From contig CAYURH010000004.1 of NCBI GenBank assembly GCA_964447105.1, forward strand, positions 1-61,581: 61,581 nucleotides of DNA. The letters run 5' to 3'. Every line of letters starts with the position of its first letter. The stretch's first letter is position 1. Below the pieces are notes generated by a model that did no database searches, was not told the DNA's origin, and saw nothing but the letters and a program-made list of their open reading frames with translations. Both the position numbers and the translations under genes were made by a program. This DNA is from an uncultured Candidatus Saccharibacteria bacterium. GTDB lineage: Bacteria > Patescibacteriota > Saccharimonadia > Saccharimonadales > EFPC-124. Of this stretch, positions 1-48,685 are shown in pieces.

Positions 1-170
1 TGCCGCTCCTGGCCTGGGCTAACGAAGGGCTCTACCAGGCGTCTATCGTCGATGAACGCTTCCAGTTCTCCGACGTGTGCTACATCACTGTGGGCCTAAT
101 CGCCGCCGCAGCCGGCGTATACACGATCTGGCGCACAAGCTCGGACAAGGAGAACAAGGTCACCGCCTGA
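1..170 (+). CDS. 3' end of a GC-rich orphan membrane protein (partial)
   Basis: Open frame from nt 3 (PLLAWANEG...YITVGLIAAAAGVYTIWRTSSDKENKVTA*) to TGA 168-170, with a hydrophobic segment, followed by GC hairpin 182-214. Confidence 0.7.
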   Translation, partial: PLLAWANEGLYQASIVDERFQFSDVCYITVGLIAAAAGVYTIWRTSSDKENKVTA

Positions 171-181
171 CCCACCTACTA

Positions 182-214
182 CCACGCCGCCCCAAGTATC
201 TCGGGGCGGCGTGG
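182..214 (+). terminator. GC-rich hairpin without U-tract (cassette 3' element)
   Basis: ccacgccgcccc / ggggcggcgtgg, 12-bp perfect stem. Confidence 0.65.
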
Positions 215-232
215 CGCAAAATTGTCATTATA

Positions 233-1528
233 TTATATGGTGTTTCTGCCGCCCAAATAGCCGCGTAGTACTTCCGGCACCGTTACGCTACCATCAGCGT
301 TTTGGAAATTTTCGATGATAGCGATGAGTGGACGCTGCGAAAACACAGTAGCGTCGTTGGTATGCAGCAACTCTATCTGGCCGCCACTACGGCGCAGACG
401 AGTCTGCATGCGCCGCGCCTGATAATCCGTAATGTAGTCTGCAGTATGCGTTTCGCGGTATGCTTGCTGCCCCGGCAACCAGCTATCGATGTCCACACCA
501 GCGGCATTGGGCCCGCCGATGTCGGCAGTGCATTTTTGTAGCACGCGGTATGGCACACCCAGTTTGCTCATCAGATATTCCTGAATGGCAATCATAAATG
601 TATGTTCATCTAGGCCAGTTTCGGGCGTGGTGAAGCTTTCCATTTCTAACTTGTCGAACTGATGCAAGCGGAATATCCCTTCGGCGTCTTTGCCGTAGCT
701 GCCCGCTTCGCGGCGAAAGGCTGTGGTGTAACCTACCATGCGGATGGGTAGATCGGCTTCGTCTAAAATTTCACCCATGTACATTGGCGCCATGGTGTGT
801 TCGGCGCTGGCATTGAGCCACAGGTCGTCATCGGCCAGTTTGTAGGTTTGTTCTTCTTTATTGAGCCGTCCGGTGGCGTCGTAGACTTCGGTGCGGGCTA
901 CGGCGGGAGGCATGACGGGCGTAAAAGGTTTACTGCTGATGTTTAGGTTGTTGTCAGCAATAATTTGCTTTAGAATTTCTTCGTTCGTCAGTACATCCAT
1001 GCCAAATTGCACCAGCGCAAAGTGCAGGCGCACCAAATCGCCTTTGAGATACGCAAACCGTGCACCGGCTACTTTGGCGGCACGTTCTTTGTCGATCCAG
1101 CCGCGGGCCTGGGCAATATCCCAGTGGTTTTTGGGTTCGAAATCAAAATGTGGCGGTTCGCCTACCGTTTTGGCTACCACGTTTTCATCTTCGGACGCAC
1201 CTACTGGCACGTAGTCCAGCGGCATATTGGGGATTTTTTTGAGCGCACCAATAAATTCAGATTCAGCCTGAGCAAGCTTATCTTCAAGCCCAGCCAATTG
1301 TTCTTTGATGCCACGGCCTTTGGCAATTTGCTCGTCAGTGGGCTTGCCCTGCTTGAGCTGATCGGCCAGTTCATTGCGAGATTGACGGAGCGCGTCAACG
1401 TGGGTTTGCAGTTCGCGGCGTGTGTCATCGAGTTTAAGTAAGCCCGATACATCTACTCTGTAGCCTTTTTGTTGAGATTTTTGCTGGACGGCTTCGGGAT
1501 TTTCGCGGATGTATCGTATGTCTAACAT
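233..1528 (-). CDS. serS: Serine--tRNA ligase
   Basis: MLDIRYIREN start, N-terminal coiled coil, FRREAGSYGKD..GIFRLHQFDKLE motif 2; start placed 7 nt after TATAAT (1541-1536). Confidence 0.97.
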   Translation of the reverse strand: MLDIRYIRENPEAVQQKSQQKGYRVDVSGLLKLDDTRRELQTHVDALRQSRNELADQLKQGKPTDEQIAKGRGIKEQLAGLEDKLAQAESEFIGALKKIPNMPLDYVPVGASEDENVVAKTVGEPPHFDFEPKNHWDIAQARGWIDKERAAKVAGARFAYLKGDLVRLHFALVQFGMDVLTNEEILKQIIADNNLNISSKPFTPVMPPAVARTEVYDATGRLNKEEQTYKLADDDLWLNASAEHTMAPMYMGEILDEADLPIRMVGYTTAFRREAGSYGKDAEGIFRLHQFDKLEMESFTTPETGLDEHTFMIAIQEYLMSKLGVPYRVLQKCTADIGGPNAAGVDIDSWLPGQQAYRETHTADYITDYQARRMQTRLRRSGGQIELLHTNDATVFSQRPLIAIIENFQNADGSVTVPEVLRGYLGGRNTI

Positions 1529-1570
1529 GAAGCTCATTATAAGAGGTGCGGGCGCACGGCGCAACCAAAC

Positions 1571-1590
1571 AAAAAAGACCCGTTAGGGTC
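1571..1590 (-). terminator. Intrinsic terminator
   Basis: gaccc-taac-gggtc-tttttt on the minus strand. Confidence 0.6.
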
Positions 1591-1606
1591 AATGTAAATT
1601 TGCCGT

Positions 1607-1639
1607 GGCGGCGACGGTCCACATGGAACCGTCGCCGCC
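1607..1639 (-). terminator. GC-rich hairpin without U-tract (cassette 3' element)
   Basis: ggcggcgacggt / accgtcgccgcc, 12-bp stem 13 nt after the stop of 1653-2042. Confidence 0.65.
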
Positions 1640-1652
1640 TGCCGCCACGAGG

Positions 1653-2042
1653 CTAGCTGCGTGGCGCTGCACCGTTGCGCCATTCCCCTTCGATCACCGG
1701 CGGCTCATCAGTAGCCGTCGGCTTCGACAGAAGAAGTTCAAGATGATCAGCGCCTTCGGGCGACATGTCGCCAACTTGCTGCTCCCACACCTTGCGCACC
1801 ACACCCACCACGAGCATCACGACGGCCAGGTAGGCTGGCGCGTTGATGACTACGTCGGAGCACATTCGCAAGGCGTTGTCGGCCAGGCTGTAGGTGATGA
1901 ACAGCCCACAGGTCGCGAAGGCCGATCCGACCATTAGCGCGCCCCCAAGGTTGTAGGCCCTGTAGGCGTGCTTGATTGCTATGGGTGCAACAACCATCGT
2001 GATGATTCCCATCACGAAGAATACTATCTGCGTCCCAGTCAC
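1653..2042 (-). CDS. Orphan membrane protein (~3 TM), GC-rich cassette gene
   Basis: GTG start with SD ggagga, three hydrophobic segments, TTC/AAG-type codons. Confidence 0.75.
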   Translation of the reverse strand: MTGTQIVFFVMGIITMVVAPIAIKHAYRAYNLGGALMVGSAFATCGLFITYSLADNALRMCSDVVINAPAYLAVVMLVVGVVRKVWEQQVGDMSPEGADHLELLLSKPTATDEPPVIEGEWRNGAAPRS

Positions 2043-2093
2043 AATATTCCTCCACTCGCAATTGGTGTAAGGATTATTATATAATTTTAATAA

Positions 2094-2582
2094 CTATTTT
2101 GCAATAGGCGCATACGGAATGTGGCATGCCCCGATCCCTGTTTTTTGAAAGAATTTTTGGTGATATTCTTCAGCTACATAAAACTCGCCCAGTTTGGTAA
2201 TTTCGGTAACAATGGGTTTGTCAAAGTCTTTTTGCACCATGGTTTTTACTTCTTCAGCGGCCTTTTTCTGTGCATCATCGACGTAAAAAATGGCTGATCG
2301 ATAATTATCCCCCACGTCTGGCCCCTGGCGGTTCATCTGCGTAGGATCGTGCATGCGAAAAAACTGGCGCACCATGTCGCGATAACTAATTTTGCTCGGG
2401 TCAAATTCTATTTGAGTGGCTTCGGCGTGACCCGTGGTGTGCGTGCACACATCTTCATAGGTTGGGTTTGGCGTGTGGCCGCCGGTGTAGCCTACAGTTG
2501 TTGCAAGCACGCCGGGCACTTCATCGAAATACGCCTGCACTCCCCAGAAACAGCCAGCGGCAAAAATAGCAGTTTGGCTCAT
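2094..2582 (-). CDS. msrA: Peptide-methionine (S)-S-oxide reductase
   Basis: AAGCFWGV active site, GHAEA, AEEYHQ motifs. Confidence 0.97.
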   Translation of the reverse strand: MSQTAIFAAGCFWGVQAYFDEVPGVLATTVGYTGGHTPNPTYEDVCTHTTGHAEATQIEFDPSKISYRDMVRQFFRMHDPTQMNRQGPDVGDNYRSAIFYVDDAQKKAAEEVKTMVQKDFDKPIVTEITKLGEFYVAEEYHQKFFQKTGIGACHIPYAPIAK

Positions 2583-3784
2583 CGAGTCAGCCTTTCGAGC
2601 GCCAACGCAAATGCAGCGCGCTTGAGACTGATGTGTTTGATTTGGGCCTGCATAATCATAGAATTGGTCGCGCGCATGAGAATCATATCTAACATGTTAT
2701 TCACTTCTTTTTCAGACCAGTGCTCACCGCGCAGGTTTTGCTGCCACTCAAAGCACGACACAATGACACCGCCAGCGTTGGCCACAATGTCGGGCAATAC
2801 TGTCACGCCTTTTTTATCCAGATAGGCTTCAGCTTCTTGGGTAATGGGGCCGTTGGCCAGCTCGACAATCATGCGCGCCCGCACTTCATGCATATTTTGG
2901 TCTGTCACCGCATCTTCGAGTGCAGCCAGCACTAGCACGTCGGCCTGCACGCCAACTATATCGGTGCTGGGGAGTGGTTTTACGTCTTTTAGGTCGGCCA
3001 GATCTTCGGGGCGGGGCTCGCCTGAAGCAGCGTGTTTGCTTACATCAATACCGTCTGGTTTGTGCCAGGTGTGTTTGCTGTTGGCGACGGCTACGAGTTT
3101 GAGCTGTGGATACTCGCGAAGTGTGTTGGCAAAATGATACCCCACATTTCCAAAACCCTGCAGCGCAATAGTGAGTGGTTGGTCGGCCATTTTGTTGTGC
3201 TTGAGGAGCTGCAGCAGCGCAATCACACCGCCGCGACCGGTGGCTGCGTTGCGGCCCTCGCTACCGCCCTGCCCCACTGGCTTGCCGGTAAACGCCGCTG
3301 CGTCGCGCTGACCTTTCACTCGGGCCAGTTCGTCGGTCATCCAGTCCATAATCTGGGCGTTGGTGTTGACGTCGGGCGCAGGCACGTCTCGGTCGGAACC
3401 AATGTGTGGCGCCAACTGCCGCGCGTAATCACGTGATAATTCTTCGAGCTCGGCCTGGCTGAGTGTGGCTGGGTCTACGATAACCCCACCTTTGCCACCG
3501 CCCAGCGGCAAGCCCACGGCTGCGCATTTAAACGTCATAAGCGTGGCCAAGGCCCGCACTTCATCTAGGCTGACATTGCGGTGAAACCGGATACCACCTT
3601 TGTATGGCCCCAACGTGTTTTTGTGCTGCACACGGTAGGCGGGAAATTTTTTGCCACCGGCCGTGACTTCAAACATATGCTCGTAATCGGGCACTAATAA
3701 TTCTTGCGCCTTGGCTTCACTAATGTCGGCGTCTTGGGCGGCTTGGCGGATGGCAGCCTGTGCAGTGGCGAGCATGCTATTCAT
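2579..3784 (-). CDS. gdhA: Glu/Leu/Phe/Val dehydrogenase (glutamate dehydrogenase)
   Basis: GPYKGGIRF, LPLGGGKGG, DVPAPDVNT, QGFGNVG, ELANGP, PDIVANAGGV. Confidence 0.93.
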   Translation of the reverse strand: MNSMLATAQAAIRQAAQDADISEAKAQELLVPDYEHMFEVTAGGKKFPAYRVQHKNTLGPYKGGIRFHRNVSLDEVRALATLMTFKCAAVGLPLGGGKGGVIVDPATLSQAELEELSRDYARQLAPHIGSDRDVPAPDVNTNAQIMDWMTDELARVKGQRDAAAFTGKPVGQGGSEGRNAATGRGGVIALLQLLKHNKMADQPLTIALQGFGNVGYHFANTLREYPQLKLVAVANSKHTWHKPDGIDVSKHAASGEPRPEDLADLKDVKPLPSTDIVGVQADVLVLAALEDAVTDQNMHEVRARMIVELANGPITQEAEAYLDKKGVTVLPDIVANAGGVIVSCFEWQQNLRGEHWSEKEVNNMLDMILMRATNSMIMQAQIKHISLKRAAFALALERLTR

Positions 3785-3953
3785 ATTTCCCTCGGTTTTA
3801 AGCTCTCATTATTATACTCCCAGCCGCGTTTTTGCGCCCGTCTTGCCCAGTATGATATACTGCCGGCGGTAGGTCACGCGCAAGTGACTTAAGCAAAACA
3901 ATTTCACAACAACTCAATAGTTGGACAAGCCCCTAGCAGGAAGGAAGTGCACG

Positions 3954-4982
3954 ATGCGACTCTTGCGTCGTGTGGGGTTGGTTGCCGCCAGCCTCACCCT
4001 GGTCTTTGGTGGCCAGGTAGCCATGGCCCCGCCGGCCCAAGCCGGTACCGGGCTGTACTACCACGTCATCGACGCGGATACCGACCCCTATTCGGGGATC
4101 TACCTCCGCAACGACCCCAATGACTTCAACAACGCCACGCGGATCACTTCGCGGTACGTGCTGTACGGCACGAGCGTCGAACTGGTCTGCGGCACGTGGG
4201 GCCAGGCCATCGGCCCGTACGCCAACCGGCGCTGGCACCAGATCTACGTCCCCAGCGGCTACGCCGCCGGTCAGACCGGATGGATGCCGGATCGGTACAT
4301 GGATACGCCCAACGCGGCCAACCAGTACACGCCGGGTGAGCCGGAGTGTGTGGCGCCTACGTACAACGGATCCGTGTACTTCAGCTCTACGGATTACGAG
4401 GGCTCGCCGGCCACGGCGCACCGGGCCTACAACCTGTGGACATCGTCGACGCGCTGCGTTCCGGGTGCCGGCGCCAACGACTTCCCGTCGTGGGTGTCGT
4501 GGCAGAACAAGTACATCAAGACTGCGAGCGGATTCAGTATCGGCCGCCTCGGTCCGGTGTACATGCTGGAGCAAGCTCAGGGCAACCCCGGTGGGGGACG
4601 CTGGCAGGAGATCACCTACATCCTGCTGTTCGACCCGGGCAATTACGACGACCTCTTCGTGGACAGCTGCGACACCAGCAACAACCGTGGTCAGCTGTTC
4701 ACCAAGTGGCTCAACGCCAACCCGAACGCTCACCTGGTGATCCTGGCCGGCGCTCGAACGGCCGAGGGTGGCCACAAGGGCATCCAGAAGCTGTACTTCG
4801 ACTACCTGCGCAGCAATGGCGTACAGGGTGCGCGTGATCGTGTGCTGGTGTGCAACTACGACGGTATGGGGCACCGCGCCGTCTACGACAACTACAAGGA
4901 CGCCATGAACAACCCGCCACCGGCCGGACCGCTCACCGCGGCCATCTGCCCCGGCACCGAAAGCTGGGCCTGGCACCCCTAA
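3954..4982 (+). CDS. Secreted protein: signal peptide, SH3b-like domain and probable alpha/beta serine hydrolase; GC-rich cassette gene
   Basis: SD aggaagga before ATG 3954; signal MRLLRRVGLVAASLTLVFGGQVAMAPPAQA; GxSxG elbow (GFSIG); very high GC at third codon positions. Confidence 0.8.
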   Translation: MRLLRRVGLVAASLTLVFGGQVAMAPPAQAGTGLYYHVIDADTDPYSGIYLRNDPNDFNNATRITSRYVLYGTSVELVCGTWGQAIGPYANRRWHQIYVPSGYAAGQTGWMPDRYMDTPNAANQYTPGEPECVAPTYNGSVYFSSTDYEGSPATAHRAYNLWTSSTRCVPGAGANDFPSWVSWQNKYIKTASGFSIGRLGPVYMLEQAQGNPGGGRWQEITYILLFDPGNYDDLFVDSCDTSNNRGQLFTKWLNANPNAHLVILAGARTAEGGHKGIQKLYFDYLRSNGVQGARDRVLVCNYDGMGHRAVYDNYKDAMNNPPPAGPLTAAICPGTESWAWHP

Positions 4983-5003
4983 CAGCCGCCCGTGACCTAC
5001 CGA

Positions 5004-5047
5004 GCGCGACGCCGCAACCCTGTACATCGGGGTTGCGGCGTCCGCGC
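5004..5047 (+). terminator. GC-rich hairpin without U-tract (cassette 3' element)
   Basis: gacgccgcaaccc / gggttgcggcgtc, 13-bp stem, extendable. Confidence 0.65.
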
Positions 5048-5078
5048 CGCACAAACTGAACTTATTTTGGCAGAGCGA

Positions 5079-6782
5079 CTACCAGCCGCCGCCTCCCCCG
5101 CCTCCGCCACCACCACCGGCGCCGCCGCTGAAGCCGCTGCCCGATGAACTGCTGGGCGGGTTGAACGTAACTGAACTCGCACTCACGAAATGCCCCAAAC
5201 CATATGGACCGTAATAATCCCCTACATACCAGTCCGGCGGTTGTTCATACAGATCGGCAAATTGTTTCATCCACTGCTTTTCTATGCCAAACAATATGGC
5301 GTACGGCAGCAATCGCTCATATAGTTTGATCAGCTGGCCTTTGTTGGCCACATCTATTTTTTCGGTCAATTCGCCATGCGGGCTCTGCAATAGCTTAATG
5401 CGATCCGCTTCGGCGAGTTTCATGTAATCCCTCATGCCCAGCAAGTAATTACGCAGCTCTACGCCTTTAGCTGTGCGCGCCGGCATAACCCACGCGCCGA
5501 TAAACAATAGAGCGCCGGCAGCACTCACCCCCAAACTTATTGGCGGCGCAAAAAACCCAACGACAAACAAAATACCGCCAAAAATCTGCCATGGCTGCCG
5601 TGCTTTGTTGGGGTCAGCCGCAAAATATCCGGCTTTGGTCACACGCTTGCCCACCGCTTGGCCCAAACTTTCTGATTTGCTCCCCAGCGTTTGGCGCAGC
5701 GGCTCCATATCTACGATTGCACCCACCGGCCGCTCACCAAATAGCATCACCAGCACGGCGCGATCGTCGACATTGAGGCCTTTGGGTTCTTTGACAAGCT
5801 CTAGCCGATACGATTTTTTGTCTTCGTAAATTTTGATGTAATGTCGTACGGCCAGATCTACAATGGTGGCTGACACGGCTTTGGATTCAAACTTTTCAGC
5901 AAGCACTGCGTTGCTCGCCAGCACCGACACGCCCGCAGGTGGTAGATATTCCGGTACGATCGCGTGACGGGCGGGCGCGTCACGGCCTTTGCGTCGCCAC
6001 CCAATCAGCACCACTACGCCCGCCAAAACCACCGGCGCAGCAACCGCCAACCCCATCAACACCCAATGCATTATTTGCCCAGCACTTGGCTGATACCCTG
6101 CAAACGTCCCCGGCGCAAAAGCTAACACCACGGTCAATGTCTGACTCGCGTTCAGGCTATGCGTCGTGACGGTCGTCACGGTGTCATGGCCGTCATCGGT
6201 GATAGTACAGCTGGATTGTACCGAGCCAAAAAAGCCGCTATAGCATGTCCGATGCCCATTGAGCTGTTGGAACAGATCGTTCGGCATATGTACACGGGCG
6301 GTTACTTGTTCAAAAGTCTGCGACCACTGATCACCGTTGATATCCCAATACAATTCGTCATGGTCACCCAGCGGCTGCACAACGCCGCGCAAAGTGTAGC
6401 CAATGTTGTATTGTTGCACACCATGCACATAGGTGTCGGCGTCGCCGATTTTGAGCACTAAATTATCGTTTTCGGTGTACGATTCGTAGTGCAATTTTTT
6501 GCCTACAGCGTCGGTGACAGCCAGCACCGTTACTTCGAGCGAATGGTTTTGATAGCTTTTGGGGATAGCGCGCAATATGCCGTGGTTTTGGTTAAAGTCT
6601 GGAAATTCAGCCACGATACGCTCGTCGACTTTCATTTCCGACACGCGGTTGGCGTCGCGCGATAGATAATAATCGGCATCAAAAGCATGGATGACAAAAT
6701 CTTGCGTACTCGCCTGCGCTGGCCGCGCACCTACGAATAGTACCAGCAGCAATAGTGGGATGAGTTTGAACAGCCTCATCAC
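5079..6782 (-). CDS. DUF2207-family membrane protein
   Basis: Signal peptide, HGILRAIP, DELYWDING, ERLLPYAILFGIEKQW and terminal GGGGGGGGGGW. Confidence 0.9.
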   Translation of the reverse strand: MMRLFKLIPLLLLVLFVGARPAQASTQDFVIHAFDADYYLSRDANRVSEMKVDERIVAEFPDFNQNHGILRAIPKSYQNHSLEVTVLAVTDAVGKKLHYESYTENDNLVLKIGDADTYVHGVQQYNIGYTLRGVVQPLGDHDELYWDINGDQWSQTFEQVTARVHMPNDLFQQLNGHRTCYSGFFGSVQSSCTITDDGHDTVTTVTTHSLNASQTLTVVLAFAPGTFAGYQPSAGQIMHWVLMGLAVAAPVVLAGVVVLIGWRRKGRDAPARHAIVPEYLPPAGVSVLASNAVLAEKFESKAVSATIVDLAVRHYIKIYEDKKSYRLELVKEPKGLNVDDRAVLVMLFGERPVGAIVDMEPLRQTLGSKSESLGQAVGKRVTKAGYFAADPNKARQPWQIFGGILFVVGFFAPPISLGVSAAGALLFIGAWVMPARTAKGVELRNYLLGMRDYMKLAEADRIKLLQSPHGELTEKIDVANKGQLIKLYERLLPYAILFGIEKQWMKQFADLYEQPPDWYVGDYYGPYGLGHFVSASSVTFNPPSSSSGSGFSGGAGGGGGGGGGGGW

Positions 6783-7579
6783 GCCGCCTCAATATCTCGT
6801 CGTTGATACACTACCAGCCCAACCAAACCAAACACTACCGGCGCAGCCGCCAAAACTACAACATGCCACCAATCTACTCCGCCCACCACTGGTTGCGGAT
6901 TGTTGAAATAATAGTACAGCGTAAATTTATAAACATCTTGCAACCAATCCACCGATGACGCAAACCACGCCAGGAAAATATTATACACAGCAAACAGCGA
7001 CACCAGCCCCACGGTCAACGATTTGCGCCCCGTGGCAAAGCCCACCATAAACCCAAATGCCGCTACTCCAAACGACAATAACCACAACAGCGTTGTAGCG
7101 TACAGCAGATCGCCCGCATCGATGGTGCCTTTGTTGATTAGTGCCGCGCCAATCAACACGCCGGGTACCGCCGCAAACGTGACCAACCCAGTGATTAACC
7201 CCAGAGACAACCATTTAGCGATCACCACACTACGCCGCGCAATCGGCAGGCTTTGCAATGTCTTAAGCGTGCCAGATTCTTCTTCGCTCACGGTCAAGCC
7301 AACGGCCATCACCACTGCCAATACAATAGTGAGAAGCGGCAAGCGGATATCGTACAATTGCGCGCCTACGTAGTTGGGCAGTTTGCGAAATGTGTCGCTG
7401 TCGCCTAGTAAACCCTGAAACTGTTGGGGTAGGTTTTTGAAAATTTCGTCAAACGCTTTGGTCTCGCTAAACGTAGGGAAAAAACTGAGCGTAAATATAC
7501 ACAGCAGCCCCATGCCCAGCATCCAGCCTAGTATTACCCAGCGTTTGTCGCGAAGCGTTTTCTTGAGTAGCGGCAGCAT
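6779..7579 (-). CDS. ABC-2 type transporter permease
   Basis: About 6 TM segments, EEESGTLKTLQSLPIARR motif, directly downstream of an ABC ATPase. Confidence 0.9.
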   Translation of the reverse strand: MLPLLKKTLRDKRWVILGWMLGMGLLCIFTLSFFPTFSETKAFDEIFKNLPQQFQGLLGDSDTFRKLPNYVGAQLYDIRLPLLTIVLAVVMAVGLTVSEEESGTLKTLQSLPIARRSVVIAKWLSLGLITGLVTFAAVPGVLIGAALINKGTIDAGDLLYATTLLWLLSFGVAAFGFMVGFATGRKSLTVGLVSLFAVYNIFLAWFASSVDWLQDVYKFTLYYYFNNPQPVVGGVDWWHVVVLAAAPVVFGLVGLVVYQRRDIEAA

Positions 7580-8475
7580 TATTTTTCTCCCCCACCTTCG
7601 TAGTAGCGCATGAATATTTCTTCGAGCTCGGGCGGCGCCACGGTGATGTCTTGGATTTTTTGCAGCGGCATGGCCGCGAGCACATGGGCTGGATTACCGG
7701 TGACTTCGAAGTGCGCGTGATGATCATCAACGCGAAATCCCTGCACGCCTTTGATTTTGGCAATGGTTTGCAGCACCGTAGGTGCAGCCGACACCACGAC
7801 GCGCTTGTTGATACGTCCCATCACCTCGCGCAAATTGCCTACAGCGATAATTTTGCCTTCTTTGATAAACGCTACGCGGTCGCACAGCGTCTGCACCTCG
7901 CTAAGCACGTGCGACGATATAAATACTGTGCCGCCAGCATTGCGATAGTCGATCATCAGTTCATTGAACTGCTTTTGGATCAAGGGGTCTAGACCACTGG
8001 TGGGCTCATCGAGTATCAACAATTTGGTTGGGCGTACCAGCGCCGCTACCAAGCCGATTTTTTGGCGGTTGCCACGCGAAAGAGTATGAATTTTGCGCCC
8101 CAGCGCCGCGTCGAGTCGCTCGGCTAGTTCGCGCGCTCGATCCATAGATACGCCGCCCGCAATATCGCCCACCAAGCGCAGGTATTGCCAGCCCGTCAGA
8201 TTGCCATATAGCTCCATGTCGCCATACAGATAGCCAATGTTACGTCGCACTTCGGGCATGTCGCCGTGCAGCCGTTGACCGAGCACCCACACTTCCCCGT
8301 CAGTCGGCCAGATAATATTGAGGAGCATGTTGATAGTCGTCGTCTTGCCCGCGCCATCGGGGCCCAAAAATCCAAAAATCTCGCCATGGTTCACCACCAA
8401 GTCGACTTTGCTAATACCCCTACTCTGTCCGTAAAATTTGGTCAATTTCTTGAGCCGGATCGCCGCTTCTGCCAC
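7579..8475 (-). CDS. ABC transporter ATP-binding protein
   Basis: Walker A GPDGAGKT, signature LSRGNRQK, Walker B LILDEP, H-loop SSH. Confidence 0.95.
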   Translation of the reverse strand: MAEAAIRLKKLTKFYGQSRGISKVDLVVNHGEIFGFLGPDGAGKTTTINMLLNIIWPTDGEVWVLGQRLHGDMPEVRRNIGYLYGDMELYGNLTGWQYLRLVGDIAGGVSMDRARELAERLDAALGRKIHTLSRGNRQKIGLVAALVRPTKLLILDEPTSGLDPLIQKQFNELMIDYRNAGGTVFISSHVLSEVQTLCDRVAFIKEGKIIAVGNLREVMGRINKRVVVSAAPTVLQTIAKIKGVQGFRVDDHHAHFEVTGNPAHVLAAMPLQKIQDITVAPPELEEIFMRYYEGGGEK

Positions 8476-8579
8476 TTCATTGCTCCCTTTTGCTTCAGTA
8501 TACGCATAAAAGGCTTGCGCTGGAAATAGCTTATGCTATATATTCATACTATTAACAAAAACAAAAAGGGGTGCTTACT

Positions 8580-8699
8580 ATGAAAGAAATTTCAGAGCTA
8601 TTGCCGCTGGTGGTGATCACGGCAATTTTGGCGTTTAGCGCCGTTGCTGGATGGCGTCTCAAATCGGGCGAAATCCACTGGAACGACTACCTACAATAG
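8580..8699 (+). CDS. 39-aa single-TM small protein (not in ORF track)
   Basis: MKEISELLPLVVITAILAFSAVAGWRLKSGEIHWNDYLQ*; aagggg SD-like site and AT-rich promoter upstream; fills the intergenic gap. Confidence 0.65.
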   Translation: MKEISELLPLVVITAILAFSAVAGWRLKSGEIHWNDYLQ

Positions 8700-8724
8700 G
8701 TCAAAACAAACAAAGACACCCTCG

Positions 8725-9102
8725 CTACTCTTGCGGGGGTGTTTTGCGTTTTCCAAGGTGCTGCATAAATTCTGGACCATCCGACTGAGCTACAGCATGC
8801 TTGGCGATCAACTGTAGCGCACCCAACATTGCACCCACACCCAAGAACAAATAAAACACCGTAAACAGCCGGCCAATGTCGGTGTGCGGCATCAGGTCAC
8901 CTGTGCCTACCGTGGTAAGCGTGAGTACGCAGTAATAAAACGCGCGTACAAAGTCCCAATGCTCAATTTCTATAAAAAATATCGTGCCACTAGCCAGAAT
9001 AATCAGTACAAAAAATATCAGTGCTTTGGCGGCGGTATCGTTTTTGAGCGTGCGCCAAAACGCAGCAGTCACTCGAGCAATCACGATAAAAAATTCAATC
9101 AT
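8725..9102 (-). CDS. Two-TM potassium-channel-family protein (Ion_trans_2)
   Basis: AFYYCVLTLTTVGTGDLMPHTDIGRLF pore loop between two TM helices. Confidence 0.9.
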   Translation of the reverse strand: MIEFFIVIARVTAAFWRTLKNDTAAKALIFFVLIILASGTIFFIEIEHWDFVRAFYYCVLTLTTVGTGDLMPHTDIGRLFTVFYLFLGVGAMLGALQLIAKHAVAQSDGPEFMQHLGKRKTPPQE

Positions 9103-9118
9103 GGGTTTAGTATACCGC

Positions 9119-9616
9119 CTAGCCCTCTATCCGGAAATGCCGAAATATGAGTCCATCAAGCAACAAGTGGCTAAAATACCCCGCCACCGCCGCTCCATAG
9201 TACACAATACTCACCGGCAACATAGCCGGATTGTACAGATATGGCACTAGCAAAATCGGCAGTGGCACCAACACCATGGCGAGCTTGCTATGCGTCCAGC
9301 CCCTGTGCTTACCCACCACCGGCGTCATAGCCAGCAAACCCAGATACGCCGCCGCTTCGATGTGCCCCGTGGCAATAAGAACAATGTCTAATATAAATGC
9401 CGTGCCTAGGAAAATATTCTGCGCTTTACTATTAGTGTCGATATCCGGAAAAAGCCCAAACAACATCCCCAGTACAAACACTGCCGCAATCGCCTGCCAA
9501 CCTTGTAATACGCCAGCCGATTCGGCAAACAACTGGATAGGCACAAACATCAGCACCGATGTATACACCGCTGCTAGCGCGAACCCGCCCACAATATGCC
9601 CTTTGTAATTTGCCAT
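9119..9616 (-). CDS. Membrane-bound metal-dependent hydrolase (YdjM-like)
   Basis: N-terminal GH, FPDID, HRGWTHS and SHLLLD motifs. Confidence 0.88.
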   Translation of the reverse strand: MANYKGHIVGGFALAAVYTSVLMFVPIQLFAESAGVLQGWQAIAAVFVLGMLFGLFPDIDTNSKAQNIFLGTAFILDIVLIATGHIEAAAYLGLLAMTPVVGKHRGWTHSKLAMVLVPLPILLVPYLYNPAMLPVSIVYYGAAVAGYFSHLLLDGLIFRHFRIEG

Positions 9617-9658
9617 GGCTGACATAAGCATAAATAATAATGCCACAAAAATCTATCG

Positions 9659-9692
9659 CTGGCCGCCGCACGTGTGCGCATGCGGCGGCCAG
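9659..9692 (-). terminator. GC-rich hairpin (cassette 3' element)
   Basis: ctggccgccgca / tgcggcggccag, 12-bp stem. Confidence 0.65.
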
Positions 9693-9703
9693 AATGGGGC
9701 GGA

Positions 9704-10060: not shown

Positions 10061-10091
10061 GTTTCCGCCTCCTTCGAGGGGTGAATAGTGG

Positions 10092-10355: not shown

Positions 10356-10389
10356 CAGTCCTCCTACAGACGTCGGTAACCAAATTATA

Positions 10390-10863: not shown

Positions 10864-10924
10864 ATTTTCTCCTTATGGCCCCAGTATGCCAGGGCCCAGC
10901 TGAAAAATGGCTTATACTAAATAT

Positions 10925-39297: not shown

Positions 39298-39891
39298 ATG
39301 ATGTTGTGGTATGACCGCTTCGACCGCGCCACAGTGCGGGCGGTCCAATGGTACCGATTCTGGCGACTTGTGGGGCGAATTTGGTCTTTCAGGTTGCTGG
39401 CGGAAGCGATCGGCGTGTCGACTTTTGGGTTACTCGCCGTGCTGTACGGCGCACTGGCAGCTGGCTGTGTCGCGCTGATAGCGTGGCAGCAGTTCGACGT
39501 ACTGCGTGTGGTTGGCTGGGTGCTCGCCGCCTATATTGCAGGCCTGGTGCTATCTGGGCTAACGTACTGGCGTAGTGCGAGTCGTCTGCGGTGGAAGTTC
39601 ACTATATCGGTGATGTTCGCCAATACTGACGAGTGGCGACGGTTGGACTCGGGGCTACGGCAGCAGCCAGGCCCCACCGATCTACTCACACTCATACAGG
39701 CCGGACGTGACTCCGAAATGGTCACATCCTATATTCGTATCTACCTACGCGCTCACCACGAGTTGGCAGGTTCGACTACGGCGTGCGGACAACTCACCCA
39801 AGGCACCCGACAACGAATGGTGAGTGCAGCCACCACGGCCGCGGAATCCATCAAGCAAACGCTGAATGGAGGCACTGGCACCAGTCGCTAG
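39298..39891 (+). CDS. Orphan 2-TM protein, cassette gene
   Basis: TTGACC-17-TATTAT promoter, agggg SD-like site, ATG 39298; hairpin 39897-39916. Confidence 0.72.
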   Translation: MMLWYDRFDRATVRAVQWYRFWRLVGRIWSFRLLAEAIGVSTFGLLAVLYGALAAGCVALIAWQQFDVLRVVGWVLAAYIAGLVLSGLTYWRSASRLRWKFTISVMFANTDEWRRLDSGLRQQPGPTDLLTLIQAGRDSEMVTSYIRIYLRAHHELAGSTTACGQLTQGTRQRMVSAATTAAESIKQTLNGGTGTSR

Positions 39892-39933
39892 GGATAGGGG
39901 TCGCGAAAACGGCCCCAAATCCAGTCTTATATA

Positions 39934-39961
39934 TAAACGAGCTCCATGTGGAGCTCGTTTA
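39934..39961. terminator. nrdJ terminator hairpin
   Basis: taaacgagctcc-atgt-ggagctcgttta. Confidence 0.7.
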
Positions 39962-46827: not shown

Positions 46828-47357
46828 GCTTGCAGCTCCGCCTCTAGTCGTTCGTGCACGTCGTGTATACTCCCTATACCGTCGACATGCACCACTTTGA
46901 TACCTTGCTCTTCGAAATAATCCAACGCTTCTTTAACTTCATGCTCATATATTTCAAGGCGCTCTTCAATCGCTTGAGGCGTATCATCTGACCGCGCCCG
47001 GAGTTTGAGACGCTTCACGATTTCTTCGTGGGGCACATCCAACACGAGTATCAGGCTGATTGAACGGCCATGCTGCGGCTGTGAATCAATGAGCCACTGC
47101 GCCTGTGGTTTGTGGCGCGGAAATCCATCGATAATGACATGGTCCACATCGTGCGACTTACTGAGCGCTTGGGCCACAATTGCATTTACTTTGTCGTCAT
47201 CCACCAGATCGCCCGTGCTCATGGTTTTGAGCAAATCGTGGTCATGAGTGTCGCGGAGGAGCTGCCCCACCGATAGCCAGCGCCAGTGGTGGCGCGCCGC
47301 AAGGAGCTGCCCCTGCACACTTTTACCCGACCCAGCTGCCCCAAAAAAGATCACCAT
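46812..47357 (-). CDS. adk: Adenylate kinase (short LID)
   Basis: GAAGSGKS, SVGQLLR, IDGFPR, RARSDD; next to map. Confidence 0.9.
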   Translation of the reverse strand: MVIFFGAAGSGKSVQGQLLAARHHWRWLSVGQLLRDTHDHDLLKTMSTGDLVDDDKVNAIVAQALSKSHDVDHVIIDGFPRHKPQAQWLIDSQPQHGRSISLILVLDVPHEEIVKRLKLRARSDDTPQAIEERLEIYEHEVKEALDYFEEQGIKVVHVDGIGSIHDVHERLEAELQACSLV

Positions 47358-47366
47358 GCCCGTGGT

Positions 47367-47810
47367 CTACCCTGCTAGCTTTGCCTTTACTGCGGCAGCG
47401 ATACGACCGCCATCGGCACTGGTGCCTACTTTGGCACGGACCGCACCGATAGCTTGGCCCATTTGGGCGCCAGGCATACTGGCCACAATGTCATCGACAA
47501 TAGTTTGTAGCTCGGCATCGTCGAGCTGTTTGGGCAGATACGTGTCAATAATAGCTTTTTCTTGTAGTTCAGTTTGAGCGCGGTCGTCGGCGCCACCTTT
47601 GGCAAACTGATCGGCGCTTTCGGCCCGCTTTTTGGCTTCGCGAGCAAATACGGCTAGAATTTGGTCGTCGCTCAGGCCATCGTCGCGTACCTTTTGGGCA
47701 ACTTCTTCATACTGAATAGCGCTTTTGAGCGAGCGCAACACTTCCACTTTGGCTTTTTCGCCAGCAAGCAGAGCAGATTTGATATCGCTATTGAGACGAT
47801 CTTTGAGCAT
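47367..47810 (-). CDS. GatB/YqeY domain protein
   Basis: KKRAESADQF, YLPKQL, MGQAIG, ADGG; follows rpsU. Confidence 0.93.
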   Translation of the reverse strand: MLKDRLNSDIKSALLAGEKAKVEVLRSLKSAIQYEEVAQKVRDDGLSDDQILAVFAREAKKRAESADQFAKGGADDRAQTELQEKAIIDTYLPKQLDDAELQTIVDDIVASMPGAQMGQAIGAVRAKVGTSADGGRIAAAVKAKLAG

Positions 47811-48025
47811 TAGCGCTCACCCAAACGAATTCGCTTGAGTTTGTCGGCTTTGCGGGCTTTGCGGATGATAGCGCGAGCGCGGCGATCGCGCTTGCTGATG
47901 GCTTTTTCAAAAAATTGCAGGCTCTTGGCACGAGAAAGAACGCCGGACTGTTGCACCTTGCGGTTAAAGCGGCGAATCAGGTTTTCGTTGGCCTCTTGTG
48001 GGTCTTTACGAGTGACTTGAATCAT
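47810..48025 (-). CDS. rpsU: 30S ribosomal protein S21
   Basis: MIQVTRK...ENLIRRFNRKVQQSGVL...FFEK; rpsU-yqeY synteny. Confidence 0.88.
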   Translation of the reverse strand: MIQVTRKDPQEANENLIRRFNRKVQQSGVLSRAKSLQFFEKAISKRDRRARAIIRKARKADKLKRIRLGER

Positions 48026-48076
48026 ATCTTTGACTACTCTAGCAGAACAGAGACAGATGCGCAAGAGTTTAGGTTG

Positions 48077-48112
48077 GGTGGCGACTCGAGGGACAAGCTC
48101 AGAGTCGCCACC
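48077..48112 (-). terminator. GC-rich hairpin without U-tract (cassette 3' element)
   Basis: ggtggcgactc / gagtcgccacc. Confidence 0.6.
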
Positions 48113-48124
48113 ACATACTACACC

Positions 48125-48685
48125 CTAGTCGGTATCGACACGCACCTTGGACTTTGGTCGAGTGAAGACCGGGTCTTTGGCCTGTGCGACGCGGAAGAAA
48201 TGCGGCTCCCCAAACTGTGCAAGGACACTGATAGTCCCGTCGACCTTACTCCAATCGGCAGTGACATACGCTCTCATGAGCAGGCGGTTTACGCTCGGCT
48301 CATTAGACACCACCACGGGAATAACGTTGGGCAGCAGTTTGACCTCGGACAGGAAATCTTCCAACAGGATCCGCTCAAAGCTCAGACTCTTTGCGCGTTC
48401 ACCGAGTAGCGCGTAGAGCCGCCTCGCCGATTCAGCAATCATGCCGCTGCCAGCGCTCGACACTCCAAAGACACAGAACGTCGTTTGATGGCCGTAGTGA
48501 GCTTGGATGGCCGTAGCGGCCGCGACCAGTTGAGCCTCCCCGGCGGCCGACAGCCTGTCGCTCCCATCGTCACCGAATTCGCAGTCCGCCCGACGCAGCA
48601 CCGTAAACGGATGCTCCGACGTATAGGGCGAACTTGTTTGCGTCATCACTTCCCTTATTCTGGATATCCATTGACGAACACCCAC
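48125..48685 (-). CDS. Orphan protein resembling a degenerate SixA/histidine phosphatase, cassette gene
   Basis: GTG with aggaaggtgg SD; FTVLRRA..DRLSAAGEAQ..VSS..VVSNEP. Confidence 0.7.
   Translation of the reverse strand: MGVRQWISRIREVMTQTSSPYTSEHPFTVLRRADCEFGDDGSDRLSAAGEAQLVAAATAIQAHYGHQTTFCVFGVSSAGSGMIAESARRLYALLGERAKSLSFERILLEDFLSEVKLLPNVIPVVVSNEPSVNRLLMRAYVTADWSKVDGTISVLAQFGEPHFFRVAQAKDPVFTRPKSKVRVDTD

Follow-up and report, generated by a model that had tools for sequence, protein, structure and literature searches.

Actinomycetota are the known hosts of Saccharibacteria. The loci described here, each an ORF with a 3' palindrome, resemble gene cassettes in their layout, the described systems of this kind being integron cassettes (attC), IS200/IS605, and REP elements. 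Saccharibacteria are reported to be competent for DNA uptake (PMC10633639). In Patescibacteria, as much as 13% of the genome length is reported to stem from horizontal transfer (PMC12455944), and recent transfer has been described for a genus of Saccharimonadia and the actinobacterium that is its partner (10.64898/2026.09.16.751625).

The window analysed here (61,581 nt) is one of the 43 contigs of a genome of 944,800 bp with a GC content of 0.522. Its source is a tiny soil bacterium in which foreign-looking, GC-rich genes make up about one eighth of all genes. The initial annotation of the window described at least 11 loci as a dispersed class, characterized by a Shine-Dalgarno (SD) sequence, a GC-rich ORF, and a 3' GC hairpin, and attributed them either to repeated capture of single genes from high-GC hosts or to a dedicated set of transcripts fitted to the host machinery, such as effector mRNAs passed to the host.

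Genome-wide class of high-GC3 genes

The dispersed class is real and extends through the whole genome. With genes and ORFs taken from our own caller and a cut-off of GC3 ≥0.68, which was picked once the GC3 distribution had been seen and in this respect counts against the capture reading, it comprises 136 of 1125 genes (12% of genes, 70 kb), including eight of the 71 in the window. The distribution for all genes has its main mode at 0.52–0.64, with the backbone at ~0.57, and a separate tail at 0.68–0.96 that holds the 136 genes. These are mostly solitary, with 97 of 113 runs consisting of a single gene, although runs of two and three genes and one of six also exist. The class is a discrete one, with features that occur together.

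The proposed avoidance of AAA and TTT codons is confirmed, with frequencies per mille of 6.7 in the class vs. 40.6 in the backbone for AAA, and of 5.2 vs. 24.7 for TTT. Ala, Gly, Pro, and Arg are enriched in the encoded proteins, Lys and Ile are depleted, and TGA is the stop codon of 51 of the 136 genes, compared to 164 of the 989 others. GC3 far exceeds GC2 in these ORFs, which requires long evolution under a high-GC bias. Separable from the backbone by GC3, the class is also tied to the SD, since GGAG or GAGG precedes 79 of 116 high-GC3 genes (68%) and 138 of 550 backbone genes (25%; OR 6.4, p = 7e-18), the rates in shuffled upstream sequence being 0.135 and 0.068, respectively. Near-consensus σ70 promoters are found for 36% of the class vs. 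11% of the backbone, which counts against the capture reading.

For the 3' regions, fold z was scored against dinucleotide shuffles, and z ≤ −3 was taken as structured. Such folds follow 84% of 116 high-GC3 genes vs. 24% of 430 backbone genes (p = 8.5e-34). Their rate is 16–25% in GC3 bins below 0.62 and 34% at 0.62–0.68, jumps to 78% at 0.68–0.76, and climbs further to 83% in the next bin and 96% at GC3 ≥0.84. The stems are perfect and each is different, with no conserved core after the stem, and no repeat family was found among the hairpins of the class. In the 8 nt past the GC hairpins the frequency of A is 0.41 and that of T is 0.20, compared to 0.41 for T in backbone terminators; A exceeds T in 33 of 47 tails, and T exceeds A in 11.

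All these elements combine into islets placed in spacers between conserved core genes, in which an AT-rich σ70-type promoter is followed by a leader of ~50 nt, a strong SD, an ORF of high GC3 that in most cases has no Pfam match, and a U-poor 3' hairpin rich in GC. The switch in composition coincides with the edge of the transcript, the promoter being AT-rich and the leader, ORF, and hairpin GC-rich; the GC-rich segment begins from a few to ~50 nt ahead of the start codon and stops just past the hairpin. Confinement of the host-like composition to the transcript, as claimed initially, is thus correct as an observation, and is attributed here to ancestry, not to tuning for host ribosomes. The foreign DNA is closely trimmed, extending a median of 5 nt upstream of the start codon and 41 nt downstream of the stop codon, which counts against capture, and a boundary survey of the islets revealed only nine GC-rich non-coding segments.

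Loci in the window

Each of the 11 listed loci has a 3' stem-loop, and eight are outliers in GC3, whereas ORFs 10092–10355, 21557–22114, 25063–26019, and 39394–39891 are backbone-like. None of the 12 listed ORFs has a Pfam match above the cut-off or a BLASTP match in G005, a relative from another genus. An SD-like motif accompanies 10 of the 12.

The window starts with the 3' part of a class member truncated by the contig end (3–170, forward strand, GC3 0.80, TGA stop). The stem-loop at 182–214, with a 12-bp GC stem, is common to this ORF and the convergent serS (233–1537), with fold z of −4.4 3' of the former and −7.3 3' of the latter. On the reverse strand, class member 1653–2042 (GC3 0.73, GGAGG SD) encodes a membrane-like ORFan of 129 aa, followed by a GC hairpin with a 12-bp perfect core (1603–1650, z −3.3); the serS–msrA spacer of G005, only 40 bp long, is an empty site for this ORF. 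Two membrane ORFs on the same strand, the 118-aa class member 9704–10060 (GC3 0.84, GGAGG SD, TGA stop) and, 31 nt upstream of it, the 87-aa ORF 10092–10355 (GC3 0.61, GC1 0.68, GC2 0.51), are probably co-transcribed. The latter lacks a hairpin of its own, and the pair is closed by a GC stem-loop of 12–14 bp (9659–9692); contigs of two further samples run across this junction. The longer start at 10195 suggested for ORF 9704–10060 overlaps the next ORF. Between greA and a lysS-like gene, class member 13603–13974 (reverse strand, GC3 0.78) encodes a 123-aa ORFan; its GC hairpin (13540–13582) has ~19 pairs (z −6.5), and the matching 89-bp spacer in G005 contains only a terminator and a promoter.

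The frr–tsf spacer carries a class member on the forward strand (19476–19910, GC3 0.70), a 144-aa ORFan followed by an imperfect GC hairpin (approximately 19920–19954, z −5.4) and AAAAAT, with the canonical terminator of tsf just past it. The 89-aa ORFan 22252–22521 (forward strand, GC3 0.73, GGAGG SD, z −9.4), also a class member, has its hairpin at 22525–22561 and occupies the rpsB–rpmE interval, where G005 has a high-GC3 gene too. The 158-aa ORFan 48125–48601 (reverse strand, GC3 0.69, GGAG SD, z −4.2), with a hairpin at 48070–48120, is a borderline member.

Membership is ambiguous for two ORFs on the forward strand. The 185-aa, Pfam-less ORF 21557–22114 (GC3 0.62, GGAGG SD) has a hairpin at 22125–22186 with a T-rich run after it, and the 165-aa, membrane-like ORF 39394–39891 (GC3 0.64), which has no SD, is followed by a stem-loop (39892–39922) and by a canonical bidirectional terminator (39934–39961) that it shares with a 919-aa gene. 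The candidate 25063–26019 (forward strand, GC3 0.62, hairpin at 26028–26054) is ruled out as a class member, being a native conserved CPR gene with backbone-like GC3; homologues of its 318-aa hypothetical protein, four of them named, are 32–48% identical and all belong to CPR or unclassified bacteria (Staskawiczbacteria, Microgenomates, Doudnabacteria).

The 3954–4982 family

Class member 3954–4982 (forward strand, GC3 0.85) encodes a predicted secreted protein of 342 aa that consists of a signal peptide, an SH3-like β domain, and an α/β domain with a G-x-S-x-G motif; its AF2 model has pLDDT of 86, and the matches to the α/β-hydrolase fold are weak. Between gdh and this ORF lies an AT-rich, promoter-like stretch (3805–3875, forward strand; TTGCGC-N18-TATACT, 8 of 12 consensus matches), which includes a 22-nt element identical at 19 of 22 positions in a second Saccharimonadales genome, L034 (BLASTN, upstream regions). 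A GC hairpin of 13–19 bp (~5004–5048, z −6.2) is common to the ORF and the convergent DUF2207 gene (5079–6779). The gdh–DUF2207 spacer in G005 is 53 bp.

The protein is 60–63% identical to proteins from Micromonosporaceae (Plantactinospora, Micromonospora); the best donor identity, 63% to a protein from Micromonospora sp., counts against capture, as no recent donor was found. The family is native to high-GC genomes. Among 34 metagenome homologues, the usable flanks mostly have GC of 0.58–0.70, and three homologues are in low-GC contigs. The family forms a high-GC island in five Saccharimonadia genomes, and trees and AU tests reject a single clade for these five copies (ΔlnL 304, p-AU 1.6e-56). 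In these phylogenies the family falls with Micromonosporaceae, and its copies from Saccharimonadia are polyphyletic, indicating several entries into this class. Two phylogenetically separate copies adjoin gdh in two genomes, which counts against capture. In the closest high-GC homologues (Micromonosporaceae, L125) the ORF is likewise preceded by an SD and followed by a long, U-less hairpin. Among 32 other homologues (the window copy and 31 from further genomes, most of them high-GC) the hairpin rate is 6 of 32, and the rate in the class is far above it, again counting against capture. ORF 3954–4982 is the best-documented captured gene and represents the only family that could be traced outside the genome.

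Homologues and comparison with relatives

Approximately nine tenths of 124 class proteins have no Pfam match, and the matches comprise nine families with one or two members each. Genes taken at random from Actinobacteria would not be so poor in Pfam matches, which counts against capture, as does the presence of real homologues outside the genome for only one of six high-GC3 proteins or families searched. No homologue of ORF 19476–19910 was found in two very large searches, and no usable Atlas match for C16_5117; C2_18108 has only weak partial matches, in 24 of 201 genomes, C11_25214 has none (0 of 351), and the C6 lipoproteins have none in 301 Actinomycetota and 300 genomes of their own class. 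The proven 3954–4982 family, used as a search control, matches only 2 of 350, so these genome samples are insensitive. Four tandem lipoprotein paralogues under a common promoter are 23–28% identical with GC3 of 0.73–0.85, and such divergence with retained high GC3 sits badly with simple amelioration. Sec or lipoprotein signals on several class products predict the cell's own envelope as their destination.

Matches in G005 exist for 4 of the 136 high-GC3 genes (3%) vs. 59.6% of backbone genes; in the reverse comparison, the values are 2 of 78 vs. 68%. Among 393 intervals in synteny, filling is confined to the genome studied here in 38, many of which measure −59 to 143 bp in G005, and to G005 in 13; another 15 carry unrelated genes in both genomes (OR 9.9). 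The class is lineage-specific: many sites have no insert in G005, and the filled ones coincide as insertion hotspots. The tsf–frr spacer, empty in five relatives and containing different high-GC3 ORFs in five others, is a family-wide hotspot. The same class exists in the second genus, with 78 of 898 G005 genes being high-GC3; hairpins (62% vs. 26%), SDs (55% vs. 25%), and TGA stops (44% vs. 16%) are more frequent in them than in the backbone. Same-site homologous cassettes retain high GC3 in different genera, as in L011 and L013 (30% identity) and, for the 3954–4982 family, in the window and L034.

Origin of the islets

The loci belong to a genome-wide class of ~136 genes. These are probably islets, in most cases of one gene each, that evolved in genomes of high GC and arrived by horizontal transfer, with Actinomycetota as the most likely donors. 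Repeated capture from high-GC hosts, the first reading of the initial annotation, is supported by the genome-specific class, the empty sites, and the 3954–4982 family. DNA would enter by natural transformation, ComEC being present in the genome, and would be integrated by illegitimate or homology-facilitated recombination, with the hairpin arriving within the donor transcription unit. Hairpin-bearing units may be kept preferentially, their transcripts being insulated or stabilised in a compact genome, while deletion bias would trim the remaining foreign DNA; expression of the genes, from transcription to translation, would take place within the epibiont. The near-universal hairpin, tight trimming, strong promoters, and many ORFans stand outside this account.

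The coincidence of the composition switch with the transcript, promoters and SD sites stronger than those of the backbone, diverged lipoprotein paralogues with a conserved promoter and high GC3, the many ORFans, and same-site cassettes that remain high in GC3 across genera, would suit a native, fast-evolving accessory class, the transcribed part of which is kept GC-rich by selection or a biased process. We consider such an origin unlikely, since the 3954–4982 family is nested within sequences of high-GC genomes, a single Saccharimonadia clade is rejected, and only 3% of the class is common to both genera. Its extreme form, host-tuned or host-delivered mRNAs, was the second initial reading and is not supported: C34-anticodon tRNAs for G-ending codons are encoded in the genome, signal peptides and lipoboxes indicate destinations in the envelope of the cell itself, and no route of mRNA export is known. 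One cultured Patescibacterium reportedly takes up host RNA and does not supply RNA to the host (10.64898/2026.06.21.733656).

Such uptake is in line with an RNA-mediated route, left formally open by the confinement of composition to the transcript, in which host mRNAs would be taken up, copied to DNA, and integrated, the foreign segment being the transcript itself and requiring a resident promoter. The prevalence of single-gene runs, the edges of the GC-rich segment, the hairpin rate exceeding that of the other 3954–4982 homologues, tails that are A-rich and not U-rich, and promoters of the resident type agree with this route. It is nevertheless quite improbable, as the RVT_1 reverse transcriptase was not found in the genome (98.5% complete), the tail is merely A-enriched with no poly(A) run, pairs, triples, and the run of six occur, and selection for insulated units together with deletion bias can yield the same boundaries. 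Hotspots and one tandem array could also reflect cassettes moved by a dedicated hairpin-recognising recombinase, which seems very doubtful. A single tyrosine recombinase is present (C25, 310 aa), with the composition of the backbone and a counterpart of 75% identity in G005; Y1_Tnp, rve, and DDE_Tnp_1 were not found in the genome, and target duplication is limited to a weak signal from the array, bearing out what was initially said of transposases and duplications; in addition, no conserved core follows the stems, which all differ, and the units are dispersed, each with its own promoter. Chimeric joins of epibiont and high-GC reads, in assembly or binning, are scarcely credible. Islets are in mild excess at contig ends (17 of 86 vs. 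12% expected, p = 0.045), but the junctions are not chimeric, being bridged by contigs of three runs: 60–6668, 7450–12878, and 13484–16354 are spanned when run X1 is assembled separately, and contigs of X2 and X3, from other samples, cross 2042/2094, 9616/9704, and 19396/19476 without differences. Moreover, the same class is present inside the single 889-kb contig of G005.

High-GC3 genes in the genome and in the window

The genome to which the window belongs as contig C4 (G000; 944,800 bp in 43 contigs, GC 0.522, completeness estimated at 98.5%) yielded 1125 gene calls, 71 of them in the window. The calls were made with a home-made ORF caller, which scores codons by log-odds from a training set of 273 ORFs (≥350 aa), adds a small bonus for Shine–Dalgarno (SD) sites, and chooses greedily among overlapping ORFs. 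The GC3 values of these genes form a tight main mode at ~0.57 and a separate upper tail. With a cut-off of 0.68, picked post hoc when the distribution was already known, the tail comprises 136 genes (~12% of all genes; 70,302 bp; GC3 0.68–0.96), nearly all of 50–400 aa, and 97 of its 113 runs are singletons. These genes are called islets here, and the remaining ones, which are not AT-rich (GC1/2/3 of 0.585, 0.416, and 0.578 in long ORFs), the backbone. TGA stops are found in 51 of the 136 tail genes compared with 164 of the 989 backbone genes, whereas the codons AAA (6.7 vs. 40.6 per mille) and TTT (5.2 vs. 24.7) are rare in the tail, the composition of which is foreign to the resident genome in codon, stop-codon, and amino-acid usage alike. 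ORFs with a GC3 of 0.8–0.96, a GC2 near 0.5, and amino acids of the high-GC type can only be the product of long evolution in which high GC was favored; such a make-up makes an origin inside a genome with a GC3 of 0.57 impossible, with no need of any homologue.

Eight of the window genes belong to the tail: 3–170, 1653–2042, 3954–4982, 9704–10060, 13603–13974, 19476–19910, 22252–22521, and 48125–48601. The initial annotation had pointed to 11 loci, with 12 ORFs, that break the backbone in this way, and Pfam gives no above-threshold match for any of the 12. That observation is confirmed, except that 25063–26019 is a conserved CPR gene and that 21557–22114 and 39394–39891 are ambiguous; these three ORFs, as well as 10092–10355, have a backbone-like GC3 of 0.61–0.64. 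The housekeeping genes of the backbone in the window include serS, msrA, gdh, DUF2207, ydjM, a class-II lysS-like synthetase gene, greA, frr, tsf, and rpmE, and no tRNA gene lies within it. Synteny is seen with a named Saccharimonadales MAG (77% identity for msrA and 69% for gdh), the runs that contain window sequence are soil and rhizosphere metagenomes, and the assignment of the window to Saccharibacteria is reasonable.

Initiation signals, promoters, and boundaries

A GGAG or GAGG core placed 4–18 nt 5′ of the start is present in 79 of 116 tail genes but in only 138 of the 550 genes of the backbone when genes preceded by ≥40 nt of spacer are counted (OR 6.4, p = 7e-18), while shuffled upstream sequences give rates of 0.135 and 0.068, respectively. 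Promoter-like sites of the form TTGACA-N16–18-TATAAT, with at least 10 of 12 matches, precede 36% of the tail genes (n = 109) but only 11% of those in the backbone (n = 480). The promoters of the islets, each unit having its own promoter-like site, are of the resident type and nearer to the consensus than those of the backbone. The GC content of tail genes is 0.36–0.42 at positions −75 to −45, rises to ~0.55 in the last 30 nt, is 0.64 in the ORF and 0.65–0.70 for 45 nt 3′ of the stop, and then falls to 0.36. Trimming is tight, with the GC-rich stretch reaching a median of 5 nt 5′ of the start and 41 nt 3′ of the stop, and the whole genome has only nine GC-rich non-coding segments that reach 200 nt. 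The orientation of the islets is random (singletons between co-directional genes: 28 same, 26 opposite). The idea of divergent promoters as a general rule was dropped, a same-strand downstream neighbor being found for 57% of the tail genes and 67% of the backbone genes.

Hairpins downstream of the stop codons

The 70 nt past each stop codon followed by a spacer of at least 40 nt were compared with 30 dinucleotide shuffles. A fold with z ≤ −3 follows 84% of the tail genes (n = 116) but only 24% of those in the backbone (n = 430; Mann–Whitney p = 8.5e-34), the latter rate being 19% in the 328 backbone genes with no adjoining tail gene. By GC3 bin, the rate is 16–25% below 0.62, 34% at 0.62–0.68, 78% at 0.68–0.76, 83% in the following bin, and 96% (24 of 25) at 0.84 and above; the jump between the 0.62–0.68 and 0.68–0.76 bins meets the concern over the post hoc cut-off. 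Perfect GC stems of 9–16 bp located 5–25 nt past the stop are found after 44 of 116 tail genes and 28 of 430 backbone genes (OR 8.8), and in 19 of 32 backbone genes with such a stem it is common to an adjoining tail gene.

The terminators of the backbone are canonical, consisting of an A-tract, a stem, and a T-tract. The islet hairpins have the GC-rich stem-loop of a canonical intrinsic terminator just past the gene and lack the U-tract 3′ of the stem. Within the 8 nt that follow the stem in 47 high-GC3 genes genome-wide, the frequency of A is 0.41 and that of T is 0.20, compared with 0.41 for T in backbone terminators; A exceeds T in 33 of these genes and T exceeds A in 11. This A-rich tail, as at 215–222 and 19955–19963 in the window, is independent of the orientation of the neighboring gene and is the reverse of intrinsic-terminator polarity. 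The hairpins do not form a repeat family, since all their arms differ and none is found in the 20 largest of at least 60 direct-repeat families in the window; repeated palindromes of the REP or MITE type, which would be a family of similar sequences, were rejected. Together, the statistics on SD sites, 3′ structure, codons, stop codons, GC profile, and promoters bear out the description in the initial annotation (SD, avoidance of certain codons, a GC stem past the stop, and an AT-rich promoter), and these features co-occur far beyond chance throughout the genome.

Junctions, empty sites, and hotspots

The probable source run (X1) was also assembled separately; this assembly spans positions 60–6668, 7450–12878, and 13484–16354 of the window, and contigs from two other samples cross three backbone–islet junctions with zero differences. 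Among the contigs compared, none with a joint exactly skipping an islet was seen, although contigs cannot show absence. Of the 86 contig ends of the genome, 17 stop inside a high-GC3 gene (12% expected, p = 0.045), an excess that may reflect strain-level presence/absence variation breaking the assembly.

High-GC3 genes are also present in G005, a relative of a different genus with a GC of 0.448, for which 789 kb of a single 889-kb contig were covered. There, the GC3 of 78 out of 898 genes exceeds the core by more than 3 standard deviations, and these genes differ from the backbone in 3′ structure (62% vs. 26%, with mononucleotide shuffles), SD sites (55% vs. 25%), and TGA stops (44% vs. 16%). 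BLASTP searches (E ≤ 1e-5) against this part of G005 gave a match for 4 of the 136 tail genes compared with 59.6% of the backbone; in the reverse search, 2 of the 78 high-GC3 genes found a match compared with 68% of the backbone. The islet genes turn over faster than genera diverge.

Among 393 syntenic intervals, 38 hold a tail gene in G000 alone and 13 in G005 alone. The G005 spacer measures −59 to 143 bp at many of the 38, and at islet sites of the window it is 40 bp (serS–msrA), 53 bp (gdh–DUF2207), and 89 bp (lysS-like gene–greA). Such patchy presence, with empty sites among relatives, is that of horizontally acquired genomic islets. Fifteen further intervals are filled in both genomes by unrelated high-GC3 genes (OR 9.9, p = 1.3e-7) and represent hotspots. 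The tsf–frr spacer, which houses 19476–19910 in the window, is 10–66 bp long in five of the loci from 30 relatives; in five genomes of the same family it contains different ORFs with a GC3 of 0.75–0.85, all of them accompanied by a GC hairpin and a promoter-like site, and in other families of the order only low-GC3 ORFs are found there.

Origin of the 3954–4982 family

In the product of 3954–4982 (forward strand, 342 aa), a signal peptide is combined with a β domain and an α/β domain that bears the motif G-x-S-x-G. Other proteins carry the β domain in fusion with CHAP and Amidase_6. The AF2 model (pLDDT 86) has only weak Foldseek matches to α/β hydrolases, and the product is predicted to be a secreted protein of the SH3-like/esterase type. 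Its full-length identity to hypothetical proteins of Micromonospora and Plantactinospora is 60–63%, the best donor identity being ~63%. Those of the 34 metagenome homologues that have usable flanks are mostly located in flanks with a GC of 0.58–0.70, indicating that the family is mostly native to high-GC genomes; three are in low-GC contigs. Of 400 other genomes examined from the class, five contain members. Six Saccharimonadia genomes carry the family, and in five of them it forms a high-GC3 island (0.68–0.95) with a 3′ GC hairpin.

The Saccharimonadia copies occupy at least four positions in the tree, with the copy from the window placed in a starred clade with Micromonosporaceae. AU tests, for groups named after inspection of the tree, reject a single clade of five Saccharimonadia copies (delta lnL 304, p = 1.6e-56), as well as a clade of the window copy and locus L034 (p = 1.3e-91). 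A conflict between gene tree and species tree that names a donor group was found for this family only. The layout is the same in the genes from Micromonosporaceae and in the metagenome homologue nearest to the family, with an SD site and then a 16–26-bp U-less hairpin 30–45 nt past the stop. The tree and this layout show that a whole unit of the actinobacterial type was taken over, more than once. Hairpins follow 6 of 32 homologues of the family (31 in other genomes, mostly high-GC, and the window copy), compared with 84% of the tail genes.

The copies of the window and of L034, although not sisters, both directly adjoin gdh in two Saccharimonadales genomes, and a 22-nt element (19 of 22 positions identical; 3853–3874 in the window) precedes both of these gdh-side cassettes. 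The other four Saccharimonadia copies have no gdh within 1.5 kb.

Other islet proteins

Pfam searches with 124 complete tail proteins found nine families with one or two members each, including CHAP, M23, GH16, HbpS-like, FG-GAP, LapA, P450 (weak), and Abhydrolase_6; NCBIfam and PHROGs add few annotations. The PHROGs matches comprise 16 families with a single member each, mainly of peptidase and endolysin types, and no relative of the 3954–4982 family was found in viral contigs; a phage origin of the islets was rejected on these grounds. The 144-aa product of 19476–19910 has no homologue in two very large searches, and its single-sequence AF2 model (pLDDT 49) is uninformative. Protein C16_5117 has no usable Atlas match, and three other islet proteins have no real match in evenly drawn Actinomycetota genomes, an insensitive sample. 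As a control, the proven 3954–4982 family was found in only 2 of 350 such genomes, so the blanks from this sample say little. Altogether, five proteins or families besides 3954–4982 (four and 19476–19910) gave zero usable homologues outside.

Four tandem paralogues of ~200 aa, lipoproteins with a lipobox and four conserved Cys residues, are located on contig C6 of the genome (13852–16742; L050 and L158–L161). They are 23–28% identical, with a GC3 of 0.73–0.85 and a different hairpin each, and have a common promoter, TTGACATTA...TATGCT; an overlapping pair of high-GC3 genes precedes the array. The family was not found in 300 other genomes of the class or in 301 Actinomycetota. Elsewhere, C10:3100–4071 (GC3 0.88) is 48% identical to C3:8517 (303 aa), a gene of backbone composition (GC3 0.55), and seems to be a foreign copy alongside a native one in the same genome. 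The largest islet protein (L047, C3:20414–21886; 490 aa, GC3 0.68) combines CHAP and β-propeller lectin domains, and with this peptidoglycan hydrolase and lectin pairing it is a plausible host-wall attack protein.

Comparison with known systems

Minimal mobile elements of Neisseria consist of different genes between the same conserved flanks, with no mobility genes, in a naturally competent organism. They may be considered the closest formal analogue for the hotspots described here, since the tsf–frr spacer and the 15 common sites likewise hold unrelated inserts with zero transposases; the term itself occurs in the available text of PMC3787668. Unlike in Neisseria, the inserts are high-GC and foreign, mostly single ORFans, with a 3′ hairpin each. 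Exchange by transformation and recombination in the flanks is a trait of the Neisseria elements; of the parts of such a route, ComEC is present in the genome described here.

Integron gene cassettes resemble the islets in comprising one ORF, often an ORFan, followed by a palindromic element. However, integron cassettes are promoterless and arrayed behind one promoter, whereas the islets are dispersed, have their own promoters, and are apparently not accompanied by IntI. The only Phage_integrase match in the genome (310 aa, backbone GC3, 75% identical in G005) looks like an Xer-like recombinase of the conserved housekeeping type. Unlike attC sites, the 47 hairpins have perfect, unrelated stems, are A/C-rich after the stem, and contain no fixed R″/R′ core. 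The islets therefore fail as integron cassettes on integrase, attC core, promoter, and arrangement. Hairpin-dependent transposition of the IS200/IS605 type was rejected as well, PF01797 having no match in the genome.

The "I-shaped" U-poor hairpins of Actinobacteria, as described in the available text of PMC3993855, are likewise GC-rich stem-loops near the stop that lack a U-tract, although the islet hairpins sit in an epibiont with 52% GC and canonical terminators of its own. Termination by U-poor hairpins is disputed, and the title of PMC3993855 states that mycobacterial RNA polymerase needs a U-tract.

Horizontal transfer into Patescibacteria is documented, so the kind of phenomenon is already known. 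The available texts report transferred genes of ~0.9 kb each that account for as much as 13% of the length of a genome (PMC12455944), transferred fragments of 0.5–5.7 kb, half of them unannotated (PMC10031880), and gene transfer linking a genus of Saccharimonadia with its actinobacterial partner (10.64898/2026.09.16.751625, where >99% DNA identity is the criterion for sequence common to Patescibacteria and other phyla). As far as these texts go, such fragments are like the islets in being short, foreign, and often unannotated. For the oral strain TM7x, the available text of PMC7427843 reports no strong host-derived gene signal. Saccharibacteria are described as naturally competent in PMC10633639. 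The promoter–SD–ORF–hairpin layout, the near-universal U-less hairpin, the core-gene hotspots with fast turnover, and the GC3 tail are not described in the main texts compared and appear to be new in this respect.

Proposed mechanism of acquisition

Two explanations had been offered at the outset, namely repeated capture of single genes from high-GC hosts, and a set of transcripts tuned for, or delivered to, the host. Capture, the favored explanation, is supported by the tree and AU tests of the 3954–4982 family, by the empty sites, and by the disparity in G005 matches (4 of 136 vs. 59.6%). The delivery of mRNA to the host finds no support. Expression in the epibiont itself is the simplest reading of these sequences, given the resident promoters, the Sec and lipoprotein signals, and a set of 41 tRNA genes that includes C34 anticodons for G-ending codons. 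The remark that integrase, transposase, attC, and duplication are missing at the loci has held up, with no RT, Y1, rve, DDE, attC core, or convincing duplication found; profiles for Y1 (HUH) transposase (PF01797), rve, and DDE transposase have no match in the genome, which is 98.5% complete. The flanks of 68 islets are slightly more similar than permuted pairs (16.7 vs. 15.4, p = 0.006; eight above the 95th percentile), but this signal is driven by the C6 array and was not accepted as target-site duplication. Under repeated capture, DNA of a host or donor would be integrated into spacers by illegitimate or homology-facilitated recombination, the genome encoding ComEC; units bringing an SD site and a 3′ hairpin would be retained, for insulation or RNA stability, a strong resident promoter would be recruited or evolve, and the remaining foreign DNA would be deleted rapidly.

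Several properties fit plain horizontal transfer poorly, namely the dark proteins, the rarity of homologues, the hairpin rate, the tight trimming, and the resident promoters, as well as the divergent C6 paralogues under one promoter and the non-sister gdh-side copies of the 3954–4982 family. That the units are so uniform is a sign of some filter or mechanism as yet unexplained. We can speculate, while considering it quite improbable, that the 3′ hairpin belongs to the capture itself, with host transcript-sized pieces landing at resident promoters and being fixed either as single-stranded DNA with a hairpin-defined end or through RNA, that is, imported host mRNA ending at the protective hairpin. 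More host DNA might then be anchored by its homology to resident islets; if so, the hotspots and the same-site recurrences would be explained. Copying of host mRNA into DNA followed by its integration would suit the islet boundaries, the restriction to single genes, and the hairpin with the A-rich tail behind it, and its premise, uptake of host RNA by a cultured Patescibacterium, is reported in the available text of 10.64898/2026.06.21.733656; we nevertheless hold it to be highly unlikely, since the enzyme is missing, no profile match to reverse transcriptase (RVT_1) being present in this 98.5% complete genome. Eukaryote retrogenes, its analogy, have similar transcript-sized inserts, A-rich 3′ flanks, and promoters at the landing site, but they differ in having a reverse transcriptase and a true poly(A). 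Retrogene formation is not known from bacteria.

Patescibacteria, Saccharibacteria among them, live on host bacteria, from which gene flow has so far been documented only piecemeal. The soil lineage described here devotes ~12% of its genes to host-like, mostly uncharacterized proteins, the recognizable domains of which include the cell-wall hydrolases CHAP, M23, and GH16. The islets therefore represent a ready list of candidate host-interaction genes, and their composition offers a handle for guessing the hosts of uncultured epibionts. Their regular build, in which boundaries are tight, promoters follow the consensus, and a hairpin lacking the U-tract is nearly universal, calls for a mechanism and is amenable to transformation work in tractable, naturally competent Saccharibacteria.

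Other features of the window

The right end of the window contains genes for a small LPXTG-anchor protein (59160–59528) and a KGG-repeat stress protein (60836–61069), followed by the 5S rRNA gene (61223–61333) and the 3′ end of the 23S rRNA gene (61489–61581). Two low-GC3 outliers, a TPR protein gene at 11167–11820 (GC3 0.39) and an ORF of 291 aa at 55213–56088 (GC3 0.44), neither of which matches G005, may be acquisitions from low-GC donors. Rfam gave nothing for the islets, and only hairpin matches at chance level for the 293-nt segment 26576–26868 (GC ~0.65), located between a HAD hydrolase gene and the gene at 26865–28043. Codon periodicity is seen in 0 of 5 ORFs of this segment, the predicted fold is very stable at −137 kcal/mol for 280 nt, and the segment could be a decayed islet or a novel RNA.
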